Virus record (IMG/VR): IMGVR_UViG_2541047954_000002
Location: 1 to 43,165 of that record
Direction: 5' to 3' (one strand)
Source: a virus
Taxonomy: Duplodnaviria; Heunggongvirae; Uroviricota; Caudoviricetes
DNA: 43,165 bases
Part shown: one piece after another, positions 28,468 to 32,047 of the stretch
How positions within the stretch are numbered: position 1 is the stretch's first letter
How the letters are laid out: every line of letters begins with the position of its first letter
Notes under the pieces: model-generated
Seen by the model: only the letters and a program-made list of their open reading frames with translations
What the model was told of the DNA's origin: nothing
The model's database searches: none
Program-made: the position numbers and the translations under genes

Positions 28468-28656
28468 ATGGCACGAACAATGCTCTATAAGCCTGGCAAC
28501 ATGATCACCTGTGGTCAGTTTGCTGTCGATTACATCATTGTTGATGACGAAGAAGTTAAATCTCACCTGAAAAAAGGTTGGGTAAAAACTCCTGAAGAAA
28601 CCGCAACGAAGCAAAAAGTGGCTAAGGCGGAAGAAGATGGCGAAAACGAAGGGTGA
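28468..28656 (+). CDS. Hypothetical small protein, 62 aa
   Basis: GGGAGAAGACA SD before the ATG at 28468; between coat and gp4. Confidence 0.4.
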   Translation: MARTMLYKPGNMITCGQFAVDYIIVDDEEVKSHLKKGWVKTPEETATKQKVAKAEEDGENEG

Positions 28657-29098
28657 TCTCGTTCTAAAGGCTTTACGAAAAGCCGGGCTGTATTCCAATG
28701 CCACGTTGACAGATGCCGACCCTCAGGCAATTGAAGATGCCATTAATGACCTTGAAGACATGATGGCAGCATGGCAGGCGAAAGGTATCGAGCTTGGATA
28801 TCAGTTTGCGGATACAGAAAACGGCATCATGCCGTTACCTGACGATGATTCAGGTATCCCTGCATGGGCAAATGATGGCGTCGCTTTGAAGCTCGCTGTG
28901 CAAGTGTGCATGGATAACGTCATTCAGCCGTCGGATGCTCTCCTGACCGCTGCTGACAGTGCATATCAGACAATCTGTATCGCTTTAACAAAAATACCAC
29001 CACTTGAGCGGCGAAATGACATGCCTCGCGGTAGTGGTAACAAAAGCGCGTTTACGTGGAATCGGTTTTACATCGAGAAAGATGATCCGAGTACGTGA
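28637..29098 (+). CDS. Head completion / tail adaptor protein, P22 gp4-like, 153 aa
   Basis: KTKGDLV...ALRKAGLYSNATLTDADPQAIEDAINDLEDMMAAW parallels P22 gp4. Confidence 0.8.
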   Translation: MAKTKGDLVLKALRKAGLYSNATLTDADPQAIEDAINDLEDMMAAWQAKGIELGYQFADTENGIMPLPDDDSGIPAWANDGVALKLAVQVCMDNVIQPSDALLTAADSAYQTICIALTKIPPLERRNDMPRGSGNKSAFTWNRFYIEKDDPST

Positions 29099-29107
29099 GG
29101 TGAATAA

Positions 29108-29212
29108 ATGCCGATTCAGCAACTTCCGCTTATGAAAGGTGTCGGCAAAGACTTTCGAAACGCCGACTATATCGACTATCTGCCAGTGAATATGTTGGCA
29201 ATTTTGATATAA
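29108..29212 (+). pseudogene. Remnant 5' fragment of gene 10 (34 codons, [34 protein letters not shown]) left behind by the homing endonuclease insertion
   Basis: Encodes the same N-terminal peptide as the intact gene 10 at 29781 but with different codons and a premature stop at the insertion junction. Confidence 0.7.
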
Positions 29213-29248
29213 TAAGTACATGAAAAATCGAAACTTTAAGGAGTAGAT

Positions 29249-29833
29249 ATGCTTTCTGAGAATGCTAAAGATATACCTGGATTTGAAGGTGTTTATGCCG
29301 TAACAGAAGATGGCAGGGTGTATTCTCACTCACGTGTTGTTAAGGCTGCGCATGGCAGCACGCAACTCAGAAAGGGGCGCTGGTTAAAGCCTAAAATAAA
29401 TCAGGGAAGGGTGCTTTATAATATCGGAGCAAAATGGACTTTTGCCCATCGAATCGTTGCAATGACATTCCTGCCAAATCCTGAAAACAAGCCTCAGGTA
29501 AATCATATTGATGGCAATCCACTCAATAATAACGTCAATAATCTTGAGTGGTGCACTCAAAGCGAAAACATCAAACATGCATACGCCACAGGATTAAAGA
29601 AACCAATCAAGTTTTTCGGAACCAAGCACCCAAAACACAAGTTGAGTGATGACGATGTTCTTGCAATCAAGTCATCAAAAGAAAGCTTGTCAGTAATTGC
29701 GGCTAAGTACGGGATATCTAAGACCTGGGCAAGTAGGCTAAAGCGTGATGCTAACTGGGTTCATATAAAGGTTGATTCCAATGGCAATACAACAACTACC
29801 ACTAATGAAGGGATTAGGGAAAAGTGCGGTTAA
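29249..29833 (+). CDS. HNH homing endonuclease (NUMOD4-like N-terminus + HNH_3 + C-terminal DNA-binding region), 194 aa, inserted in gene 10
   Basis: GFEGVYAVTEDGRVYS (NUMOD4-like), VNHIDGNPLNNNVNNLEW (HNH), low-GC sequence; 3' end overlaps the restored gene 10 start. Confidence 0.8.
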   Translation: MLSENAKDIPGFEGVYAVTEDGRVYSHSRVVKAAHGSTQLRKGRWLKPKINQGRVLYNIGAKWTFAHRIVAMTFLPNPENKPQVNHIDGNPLNNNVNNLEWCTQSENIKHAYATGLKKPIKFFGTKHPKHKLSDDDVLAIKSSKESLSVIAAKYGISKTWASRLKRDANWVHIKVDSNGNTTTTTNEGIREKCG

Positions 29834-31199
29834 TGCTGATTATATAGACCAACTTCCAGTCAATCTTTTAGCTACGCCCAAGGAGGTGTTGAATTCATCG
29901 GGATATCTTCGCTCATTCCCGGGCATTGCCAAACGCTCTGATGTGAACGGTGTATCGCGCGGCGTCGAGTACAACATGGCGCAGAGTGCTGTTTATCGCG
30001 TGTGTGGTGGCAAGCTCTACAAAGGCGAAAGTGAAGTCGGTGACGTTGCCGGAAGTGGTCGCGTATCAATGGCACATGGTCGGACATCACAGGCGGTAGG
30101 TGTTAACGGGCAACTGGTCGAATACCGCTATGATGGCACGGTTAAAACCGTCTCAAACTGGCCTACAGATAGCGGATTCACTCAGTATGAGTTAGGTTCG
30201 GTTCGTGACATTACGCGCTTGCGCGGGCGTTATGCGTGGTCAAAAGACGGCACTGATTCATGGTTTATCACTGACCTTGATGACGAAACACATCCTGACC
30301 GTTACAGCGCACAATATCGTGCCGAGTCTCAGCCTGACGGCATCATCGGCATCGGAACATGGCGAGACTTCATCGTCTGCTTTGGTTCATCGACGATTGA
30401 ATATTTCTCCCTGACAGGCGCAACTACCGTTGGTGCTGCTTTGTATGTCGCGCAGCCATCGCTGATGGTGCAGAAAGGTATTGCCGGAACCTACTGTAAA
30501 ACACCATTCGCTGATTCGTATGCGTTCATCAGCAATCCGGCAACAGGTGCGCCGTCTGTGTACATCATCGGATCTGGTCAGGTATCACCAATCGCCAGCG
30601 CGAGCATTGAGAAAATCCTCCGCTCCTACACTGCTGATGAACTGGCTGATGGCGTGATGGAGTCTCTGCGATTTGATGCTCATGAGTTGCTGATTATCCA
30701 CCTTCCGCGTCACGTCCTCGTGTACGACGCATCTTCAAGCGCCAATGGCCCACAATGGTGTGTACTGAAAACAGGCTTGTATGACGATGTGTACCGCGCT
30801 ATCGACTTCATTTACGAAGGAAATCAGATAACGTGCGGCGATAAGCTGGAATCGGTGACCGGGAAATTGCAGTTCGATATCAGCAGTCAGTATGGGCTTC
30901 AACAGGAACACCTGCTGTTTACTCCACTGTTCAAAGCGGATAACGCCAGATGCTTCGATCTGGAGGTGGAATCATCCACTGGCGTAGCTCAGTACGCCGA
31001 CCGCCTGTTCCTCTCTGCAACCACTGACGGCATCAATTACGGGCGTGAGCAGATGATTGAGCAGAATGAACCGTTCGTTTACGACAAACGCGTTTTGTGG
31101 AAGCGAGTAGGGCGCATCAGGAAAAATGTCGGTTTCAAATTGCGCGTTATCACGAAGTCACCTGTCACTCTGTCTGGTTGCCAGATAAGGATTGAGTAA
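29781..31199 (+). CDS. Tail hub / head-to-tail protein, P22 gp10-like, 472 aa
   Basis: [49 protein letters not shown]... parallels P22 gp10; follows gp4. Confidence 0.85.
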
Positions 31200-32047
31200 T
31201 GGCGGATTCGAATCTCAATGTGCCGGTAATCATCCAAGCTACGCGGCTTGATACATCAGTCCTTCCACGCAATATCTTCTCGCAGTCGTATCTGCTTTAC
31301 GTTATCGCACAGGACACTGATGTTGGTAACGTGGCTAACAAGGCCAACGAGGCCGGACAGGGCGCTTATGACGCACAAGTCAGGAACGATGAGCAGGATG
31401 TGATTCTCGCTGACCATGAGCAGCGAATTTCTGCTGCGGAAGCAACGCTTGTTAATCATGAGGAGCGAATCAGCCAGGCAGAATCAACTCTTCAGGAACA
31501 TGAAACGCGAATCGCTCAGAATGAAAGCGATATTGCGTCTCTTGATACCAGAGTTCAGTCGCTGGAGTCGCAGGTTTCAGACCATGAAACGCGCATCGAT
31601 GCCCTGGAGTATGCCACTACTCGCAAGAAGTCAGAGGTTGTTTACTCTGGCGTATCTGTAACCATCCCGACAGCGCCGACCAACCTTGTTAGCCTGCTGA
31701 AAACGCTCACGCCGTCATCAGGCTCGTTGGCACCATTCTTCGACACCGTTAACAACAAGATGGTTGTGTTCAACGAGAACAAAACCTTGTTCTTCAAGCT
31801 GTCGATCGTCGGGACGTGGCCCAGCGGAACCGCCAACAGGTCAATGCAGCTAACCTTTTCCGGCTCTGTTCCTGACACGTTGGTCAGCAGTCGTAATGCG
31901 GCGACAACAACCGACAACATCCTGTTAGCTACGTTCTTCAGCGTGGATAAAGACGGCTTTCTTGCCACAAATGGCAGTACGTTAACCATTCAGTCAAATG
32001 GGGCGGCGTTTACTGCCACAACCATCAAAATCATTGCGGAGCAGTGA
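31199..32047 (+). CDS. Tail needle (plug) protein, P22 gp26-like N-terminus with a distinct C-terminal knob-like domain, 282 aa
   Basis: N-terminal ~60 aa [43 protein letters not shown]...NDEQDV closely parallels P22 gp26; heptad coiled-coil; C-terminal ~130 aa unrelated. Confidence 0.85.

Follow-up and report, generated by a model that had tools for sequence, protein, structure and literature searches.

We analysed a window of 43,165 nucleotides (positions 1-43,165 of the IMG/VR record IMGVR_UViG_2541047954_000002, Caudoviricetes), which belongs to a P22-like phage. In this window, gene 10, an essential virion gene which encodes the "packaged DNA stabilization" protein (gp10 of P22), is most probably interrupted at codon 31/32 by a mobile homing-endonuclease cassette (~29200-29900) that provides the invaded gene with a substitute start, a reading to which we assign a probability of about 0.7. 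The cassette carries a promoter-like TGATATAAT, a conserved leader, an endonuclease gene and a replacement 5' end for gene 10, the latter consisting of a start codon, a ribosome-binding site and 40 codons. As gene 10 is re-initiated from within the cassette, the phage would remain viable without the help of an intron or an intein.

The native start of gene 10 survives as a stub (29108..29212, on the + strand, as are all features described below), which matches positions 1-28 of the Pfam model Phage_stabilise (E 7e-11) and retains the native Shine-Dalgarno GAGGTG after gene 4. It is made of native codons 1-31 (29108-29200), followed by three cassette-encoded codons (ATT TTG ATA) and a TAA stop codon, and a second TAA is found immediately behind it (29213-29215). 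Next comes a gene for an HNH endonuclease of 194 aa (29249..29833; Pfam HNH_3 and NUMOD4). Gene 10 then restarts at an ATG (29781) located within the endonuclease ORF, in another frame and with an overlap of 53 nt, and this ATG is preceded by a Shine-Dalgarno-like AAGG element, itself inside the endonuclease ORF. The restarted gene (29781..31199; 472 aa) covers positions 1-469 of Phage_stabilise (E 1e-295). Judging from its sequence, it is a hybrid, with a cassette-borne 5' end (the first 40 codons, 29781..29900) and a resident body, and we infer that this hybrid works, since an isolated phage (Salmonella phage UPF_BP1) has the same hybrid gene. PGAP also places the gene 10 start at the ATG corresponding to 29781 in near-identical E. 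coli prophages, and its label for the stub in E. coli genomes is a pseudogene without C-terminus. A first-pass annotation, made from the sequence of the window before our analysis, had recognized a 34-codon gene 10 remnant after gp4, a low-GC HNH endonuclease gene and an intact gene 10 restarting inside it. All three were recovered: the stub shares 24 of 31 residues with the N-terminus of the full gene 10 (BLASTP E 3e-15), and the GC content is 41% in the cassette vs 52% in the rest of gene 10.

Aligning the region with P22-like phages, which the first-pass annotation had suggested as a check, delimits the inserted unit to a few bases. Phages with an uninterrupted gene 10 include E212, phiKp_30, Sf101, CUS-3, HK620 and Sf6, among others, and two-piece megablast matches to such phages span 1091 bp for 1764 bp of query, i.e. 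a net insertion of 673 bp. According to the alignment and the codon table, the left junction follows codon 31 (…AAT ATG TTG GC/A ATT TTG ATA TAA, the slash marking the junction), while the diverged copy of the gene start continues through codon 40 (…AAT TCA TCG) and ends at 29900. Nucleotide identity to the native gene of E212 is 62.5% over codons 1-40 and rises to ~95% from codon 41. As the divergence extends nine codons past the duplicated part, native codons 32-40 have been replaced rather than duplicated (two serine codons in this stretch have switched from AGC to TCA and TCG, respectively), and only codons 1-31 are present twice, once in a diverged form. The last cassette-specific difference lies at 29900 and the first flank-type polymorphism among cassette-bearing loci at ~29918. 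In between, the right-hand crossover zone GGATATCTTCGCTCATT (29901..29917) is identical in cassette and native alleles, so that the exact right end cannot be placed within it.

The two copies of the gene 10 start differ strongly from each other. The stub is ~97% identical at the nucleotide level to uninterrupted gene 10 starts, so that its homology to gene 10 is not confined to the encoded peptide. Its identity to the new copy is only 64.5% over 93 nt, with 33 differences, 23 of them at third codon positions. Among the 22 conserved codons other than Met, 16 are synonymously changed, and seven amino acids differ. The first-pass annotation had described two copies that encode nearly the same peptide and differ at most wobble positions. 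The predominance of third-position changes agrees with that description, but the changes are not silent, as eight of the 40 residues encoded by the new copy differ from native alleles (P2A, V12L, D15S, F16A, R17V, Y24Q, M29L and I36V). In its third-position GC content (GC3), the diverged copy (0.35) is close to the endonuclease gene (0.39) and remote from the rest of gene 10 (0.55).

The distribution of the cassette provides the main support for its mobility. Among 5,426 complete E. coli genomes surveyed, 916 have this gene region, of which 18 carry the cassette and ~900 an uninterrupted gene 10. Most P22-like phages are likewise uninterrupted, so that the intact allele implied by the first-pass annotation is in fact the common one. 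The cassette was also found in one isolated phage among 105 phage records (UPF_BP1, as two records), in 26 IMG/VR contigs and in several Logan/NCBI assemblies. A scan for the left-end motif in one genome per species returned no matches, and the same scan of IMG/VR returned the known clade plus one more copy only.

We aligned 41 cassette-bearing loci, some of which may be redundant between collections (UPF_BP1 appears twice). The junctions are identical in all of them. Mean pairwise divergence is 0.3-0.6% within the cassette (29201-29900), against 4.1% in the stub (maximum 19%), 5-7% in the right flank and 34% at the 3' end of gene 4, and flank polymorphism starts 5 nt to the left and ~18 nt to the right of the cassette. 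Gene 4 (28637..29098; Pfam P22_Tail-4, E 7e-41), which encodes the gp4 tail accessory (head-tail adaptor) protein, is the upstream neighbour of gene 10. It lies outside the cassette and forms a hypervariable mosaic module on its left side. Four unrelated types of gene 4 3' end adjoin the same cassette, and each of the three commonest 700-bp cassette haplotypes is found beside two or three of these four types. The stub itself exhibits 22 haplotypes in the 41 loci, with 21 synonymous and five non-synonymous polymorphisms; as this mostly synonymous polymorphism resembles the standing variation of functional genes, the stubs seem to stem from many different resident alleles.

UPF_BP1 provides us with an individual case of transfer. 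As far as the junction, over both gene 4 and the stub, this phage is 100% identical to Salmonella phage 25, a relative of P22. Downstream of the cassette, it resembles the window (97%) and not P22 (83%) for ~130 bp, and then becomes 100% P22-like. From these sequences, we consider the ~130-bp tract as the probable result of co-conversion, an E. coli-type donor having introduced the cassette into a P22-type recipient. In most other loci, conversion tracts are apparently short. Further downstream, the gene 10 of UPF_BP1 is a patchwork (window equivalents 29901-31400), being 100% P22-like at 30050-30350 and then E. coli-like into gene 26, which could reflect either discontinuous conversion or a second recombination event. 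The identical junctions, the uniform cassette within diverged flanks, the unrelated gene 4 neighbours and the UPF_BP1 tract thus bear out the mobile-element insertion that the first-pass annotation had postulated.

Where the new 5' end comes from is suggested by its divergence. The new copy has 62.5% identity to native alleles, whereas even the most distant of the Lederbergvirus alleles examined share ~82%. A peptide scan of IMG/VR retrieved its closest natural allele (84% nucleotide identity over codons 1-31) in a prophage remnant, IMGVR_UViG_2909177499_000003 (hereafter L124), at 1501-1620 of that contig. In L124, gene 10 directly follows gene 4, with neither stub nor endonuclease gene; over codons 1-31, it shows 84-88% identity to the cassette copies and only 65% to native alleles, and it is native-type from codon 32. 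L124 may stem from the donor lineage, or it may be a resistant allele that remained, without endonuclease, once the cassette was lost. Thus, given a divergence beyond that of Lederbergvirus pairs, an endonuclease-like GC3 and the likeness to L124, the new copy is best understood as a natural allele of foreign origin, long diverged, that travels with the endonuclease. The same three observations led us to drop de novo recoding of a local duplicate, and the "recoded duplicate" of the first-pass annotation is to be amended accordingly: a diverged copy of the 5' end is present, but it looks like a foreign allele, and its last nine codons replace native ones instead of duplicating them. The L124 prophage is defective, with a frameshifted gene 10 and a DnaB-like ORF immediately upstream that overlaps the start of gene 4. 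Other searches for relatives of the new 5' end were less informative. A tblastn search of phage records with the 42-aa N-terminus gave UPF_BP1 as the sole 100% match, the next best being at 83%; Salmonella phage NM-3 could be discounted as the source after inspection; and a 45-aa query for a donor returned only nine short fragments from a large protein database.

The endonuclease itself is apparently functional, as judged from its sequence and its predicted structure. It scores 40.6 bits with HNH_3 (cutoff 24.8) and 35.4 bits with NUMOD4, matches PHROG 59 (E 4e-53), and has a single significant sequence match in the PDB, namely I-HmuI (1u3e, E 1e-8). The AlphaFold model (pLDDT 84.8, with residues 180-194 below 50) has 1u3e_M as its sole Foldseek match in the PDB at E<=0.001 (E 1.9e-6, probability 1.00, 179 aligned columns, 26% identity); the TM-score is only 0.45-0.49, which we attribute to the elongated multi-domain shape of these proteins. 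The predicted layout comprises an N-terminal NUMOD4/beta-sheet DNA-binding region, an HNH(N) motif and a C-terminal three-helix (helix-turn-helix) DNA-binding domain, and the catalytic residues N85, H86, N98, N107 and H110 of the HNH(N) motif are invariant in 33 homologues. The C-terminal tail, i.e. the last ~19 residues, is modelled as disordered and is confined to this clade among the homologues. As these residues are an out-of-frame reading of the new gene 10 start, the overlap between the two genes is probably incidental packing. The endonuclease gene is free-standing, with its own Shine-Dalgarno (AAGGAG) and ATG and a frame that differs from that of gene 10. It is intact in 40 of the 41 loci, and residues 1-174 show 12 synonymous and six non-synonymous polymorphisms, which suggests purifying selection. 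Two decaying copies of the cassette were noted. In E. coli ES5 (L010, 752-1335), the endonuclease gene lacks 1 nt and is annotated as two ORFs, and in E. coli LD39-1 (L008, 709-802), the stub has a 1-nt insertion.

The architecture is not limited to the E. coli/Salmonella clade. A large protein database contains endonucleases that are 83, 82, 72 and 69% identical to that of the window over their full length, tail included, and the contigs encoding them all show the succession of gene 4, stub, endonuclease gene and overlapping gene 10 restart. Some of these distant carriers are related to Proteus phages, and one (L181) to Salmonella phage MS2 LVA. As relatives at 69-83% identity share the same layout in distant P22-like phages, the endonuclease family is old and still moving, so that the insertion, which the first-pass annotation had described as recent, is so in the E. 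coli/Salmonella clade, but the architecture as such is not. The distant stubs read MPKIQVPISRGLSKDFRTADYVDSLPVNML in L182-L184, MPIQQLPLMRGTGKDYRNADYIDYLPVNMLAFLI in L185 and MPTTQLPLSKGLGKDYRNADYVDLLPVNMLAL in L186, each followed by a stop codon, and end at codon 30-31, except for the shorter stub of L181 (MPQVKIPLARGLRKDPHTADYIDGLK, then a stop). In L181, the one lineage with a close uninterrupted relative, the stub is native-type, with 89% identity to MS2 LVA over the first 75 nt. That stubs look fresh while endonucleases have diverged is best explained if the stub is remade from the recipient at each transfer. All cassette copies encode (V/T)N(L/C)LATPKEVLN where native genes encode VNMLATPKE(I/V)LN, the NML codons just to the left of the junction having become NLL or NCL in every one of them. 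In L181 (3560-5353), as in Proteus phage vB_BPM-V3 (L188, 2101-3882), gp10 has ~595 residues vs 472 in the window, i.e. ~120 extra residues.

From these observations, the following mechanism can be proposed. When a cassette-bearing and a naive P22-like genome meet in the same host cell, the endonuclease would nick or cut the naive gene 10, at around codons 26-40. Repair would then copy the cassette from the donor, the left homology arm being the donor stub and the right one the gene body from codon 41, and the recipient's own gene 10 start would become the new stub. The donor would be immune, its target being split between the stub and a copy that is diverged at the junction. The recognition site of I-HmuI-type enzymes is degenerate and spans ~24 bp, and the nick is made at a distance of 3 nt from the insertion site (PMC3017599). 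The replaced segment (~27 bp) together with the junction would fit a site of this size, and the recoded codons on either side of the junction offer similarly indirect support. The conservation profile of uninterrupted alleles is flat (0.87-0.97 throughout) and does not single out a target site. As the left arm is the conserved start of gene 10, and not the hypervariable gene 4, the cassette could cross between unrelated gene 4 modules, and we propose this ability as the rationale for the duplicated gene 10 start.

Several points weigh against this reading. Whether naive gene 10 is cleaved, where and by which type of break, and whether the new copy resists, is deduced from sequence comparisons. 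Over the 23 nt to the right of the junction, MS2 LVA, the naive relative of L181, does not differ from the cassette copy. With the right half-site being the same in this naive relative, the immunity of L181 must come from the split together with the recoded left half, which suggests that critical contacts of the enzyme include codons ~26-31. Moreover, only ~2% of E. coli P22-like prophages carry the cassette. A strong drive would be expected to reach a higher frequency, although opportunities for co-infection may be what limits it. Finally, a uniform cassette within diverse flanks could also arise by ordinary homologous recombination at a known mosaic boundary, with the endonuclease playing no part.

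The left end of the cassette includes an element that may be relevant to its expression. TGATATAAT (29205..29213), which was spotted by eye and confirmed by a pattern search, lies 36 nt upstream of the endonuclease ATG and also supplies the stop codons of the stub. It is the only perfect extended -10 consensus (match to TGNTATAAT) in the window, for 1.25 expected by chance, so that the argument for it rests on position and conservation. TGnTATAATAA, AATCGAAAC and GGAGTAGAyATG indeed do not vary among five cassette lineages with endonucleases that are 69-83% identical. In the conserved endonuclease 5' leader (29226..29248), AATCGAAAC occupies 29226-29234 and the Shine-Dalgarno AAGGAG 29238-29243. 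Other P22-like phages have this leader block too, in front of the related endonuclease genes that separate their genes 10 and 26. A scan for two-hexamer promoters found nothing, and no -35 element was detected. TGATATAAT may be the cassette's own putative promoter, allowing expression from the prophage. Two other features of this region were noted. An inverted repeat, TGCCAG…(T)TGGCA (29181-29200), flagged as terminator-like in a scan, has its end precisely at the insertion junction, with a T-rich run behind it; the corresponding sequence of native alleles is GCCAG-N8-CTGGC. In addition, a short upstream ORF (29220-29246; ATG AAA AAT CGA AAC TTT AAG GAG TAG) overlaps the endonuclease Shine-Dalgarno and stops 2 nt before the endonuclease ATG. 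It is found in three of the five cassette lineages, is absent in L184 and is fused in frame with the endonuclease in L181, and it might act in translational control of the endonuclease.

Expression from the prophage would open a further role for the endonuclease, which would come in addition to homing. I-HmuI-family enzymes mediate competition between related phages. An endonuclease expressed from a prophage could similarly damage superinfecting naive P22-like phages and exclude or convert them, in which case the cassette would persist through the benefit it confers on its carrier. We regard this possibility as rather unlikely, although it deserves more credit than the alternatives discussed below. 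It would account for the invariance of a perfect extended -10 element (29205-29213) across five diverged lineages and would suit an element most known copies of which reside in prophages. However, the putative promoter is a consensus match for which no -35 element was detected, and the need to encode the stop codons of the stub could by itself explain why the -10 bases are conserved.

The cassette could also be a passive mosaic module, which arose once by illegitimate recombination and has since been spread by ordinary homologous recombination, the endonuclease being inactive or having another target. The gene 4/gene 10 boundary is a mosaic junction anyway, with four gene 4 types, the cassette is found in only 18 of 916 genomes, cleavage is a proposed activity, and one copy (that of L010) has a frameshifted endonuclease gene. 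An inactive endonuclease would nevertheless be difficult to reconcile with ORFs intact in 40 of 41 loci, an excess of synonymous changes and invariant catalytic residues. Nor would ordinary recombination be expected to place crossovers, in many independent backgrounds, so close to the cassette ends, at most a few bases away on the left and ~20 bp on the right. Furthermore, the same layout persists in lineages whose endonucleases have diverged to 69% identity, so that the enzyme must have been under selection for a long time, and related endonucleases with a foreign flank occur at the other end of gene 10. Overall, we consider a passive module improbable.

Removal of the insert at the RNA or protein level, with the stub serving as exon 1 of a gene interrupted by a group I intron, an intein or a translational bypass, is far less probable still. 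A full-length gp10 would indeed result if codon 31 of the stub were joined to codon 32 at 29874, and this gp10 would then bear the N-terminus of the stub (…GVGKDFRNADYIDYLPVNMLA). However, an Rfam scan of 28900-30100 found no family at E<=1, introns included, apart from a weak MicA match below the gathering score. Besides, the stub closes with two stop codons, and the endonuclease gene has its own Shine-Dalgarno and is not in the gene 10 frame. The new start is complete, comprising all 40 N-terminal codons, and such a duplicate would be pointless if splicing occurred. A group I intron in particular was excluded, as there is no match to an intron family, what would be exon 1 does not end in U, and a substitute start is present. 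We also rejected a gene split into complementary pieces, as the downstream ORF spans the whole Pfam model (1-469) and the stub duplicates residues 1-31 instead of complementing it. Lastly, an assembly or sequencing artefact, or a chance short ORF, can be dismissed as the least probable of all, given the homology between stub and gene 10 (E 3e-15) and the independent recurrence of the arrangement in 18 complete E. coli genomes, one isolated phage, 26 IMG/VR contigs and several Logan/NCBI assemblies.

Under the homing reading, which we thus favor, the cassette can be compared with several known systems. The closest precedent is to be found in the mitochondrial "gene hybrids" of fungi, described for atp6 in Allomyces macrogynus (Paquin et al. 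1994, as reported by Beaudet et al. 2013, PMC3630166) and for atp6, atp9, cox2 and nad3 in Glomus (PMC3630166). In these hybrids, a foreign C-terminal segment was inserted together with an endonuclease ORF, leaving the native C-terminus as a remnant (PMC3630166). In both situations, the mobile unit associates an endonuclease gene with a foreign copy of one terminus of the invaded gene, the native remnant is near-identical to the corresponding terminus in related genomes (~97% for our stub), the inserted copy is more diverged in DNA than in protein (64-81% there, 64.5% here), and the gene is functional without intron or intein. The present case is the 5' mirror image of the fungal one: here, replacement affects the 5' end and leaves the remnant upstream, while in fungi it affects the 3' end and leaves the remnant downstream. 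In addition, the HNH gene is here separate and overlaps the new start out of frame, whereas fungal endonuclease ORFs are often fused in phase, and the host is here a temperate phage operon, with a cassette that has a promoter-like element. The fungal endonucleases belong to other homing-endonuclease types, generally the GIY-YIG and LAGLIDADG families.

The cassette also resembles elements of intronless homing, in which phage endonucleases are free-standing, such as SegF of T4 (Belle et al. 2002, as reported in PMC12724721; reviewed in PMC2988022). As with SegF, a free-standing endonuclease gene lies beside a diverged, presumably resistant, version of the target gene, and spread would occur through repair-mediated conversion with co-conversion of flanking markers. 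Two traits of intronless homing are matched here, namely a presence/absence polymorphism at one precise site and the co-conversion tract of UPF_BP1. However, endonuclease genes of the SegF type sit between genes and replace their flank without duplication, whereas ours lies within an ORF, where a stub is left and renewed. Other phage genes are split by endonuclease genes, namely mobE in nrdA of Aeh1, mobA in gene 39/60 of T4 and a seg gene in gene 43 (PMC2988022). They have in common with the present case a free-standing homing endonuclease gene inside an essential coding region, in the absence of intron or intein, but they yield two polypeptides that reassemble, whereas the whole of gp10 is made from the substitute 5' end and the stub is redundant. 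With regard to the enzyme itself, I-HmuI and I-BasI (Bacillus phages SPO1/Bastille; PDB 1U3E) have the same N-terminal sheet, HNH motif and C-terminal helical domain; unlike these intron-encoded HNH nicking enzymes, the present one is not encoded by an intron, and the identity in the fold alignment is 26%. We found no description of this cassette arrangement in the literature, either in P22-like or in other phages, although an earlier mention cannot be excluded.

The opposite end of gene 10 shows a different arrangement. In other P22-like phages, two related endonucleases (55% and 43% identical to ours) are encoded between genes 10 and 26, at 2446-2991 in Escherichia phage HZ41 (L003) and at 2501-3037 in L047-L058 and L066-L069. 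In the phages carrying them, the last ~330 nt of gene 10 (window equivalent ~30860-31199) are only 50-65% identical to the window, and no remnant is present, which looks like classical intronless homing at this other end of the gene. The HZ41-type endonuclease gene shares its 5' leader and first ~47 codons with the window (86.6% nucleotide identity; window 29225-29388 vs L003 2423-2585), but is diverged beyond ~codon 47, including the C-terminal DNA-binding domain, which suggests modular shuffling of endonuclease specificity domains.

The cassette has practical consequences for genome annotation. Pipelines mark the stub as a pseudogene, and at least one GenBank record, that of UPF_BP1, starts gp10 36 codons late. 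In this record (KX776161), the annotated CDS (SPUPF_00058, L001 2283-3593) begins at an internal ATG, the stub is unannotated, and the real start lies at L001 2175, inside the endonuclease ORF. The cassette also offers a natural and tractable system, with naive alleles in P22, Sf6 and HK620 and carriers such as UPF_BP1 and E. coli lysogens like MS 115-1.

More generally, the cassette indicates that a selfish nuclease gene can sit in an essential phage structural gene without any splicing, by means of a replacement gene start. As a tentative extension, for which we would claim somewhat less than even chances, a substitute terminus combined with a promoter of its own may constitute a third general route, beside introns and inteins, by which phage homing endonucleases enter essential genes. 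The stub, remade from the recipient at each transfer, would then be a portable homology arm across the gene 4 mosaic boundary, and a cassette expressed from a prophage would attack or convert superinfecting relatives. For P22-like phages, the cassette accounts for a sharp mosaic breakpoint and for an N-terminal variant of gp10. Along with the endonucleases encoded at the opposite end of gene 10, it suggests that homing drives mosaicism locally in the head-completion genes.

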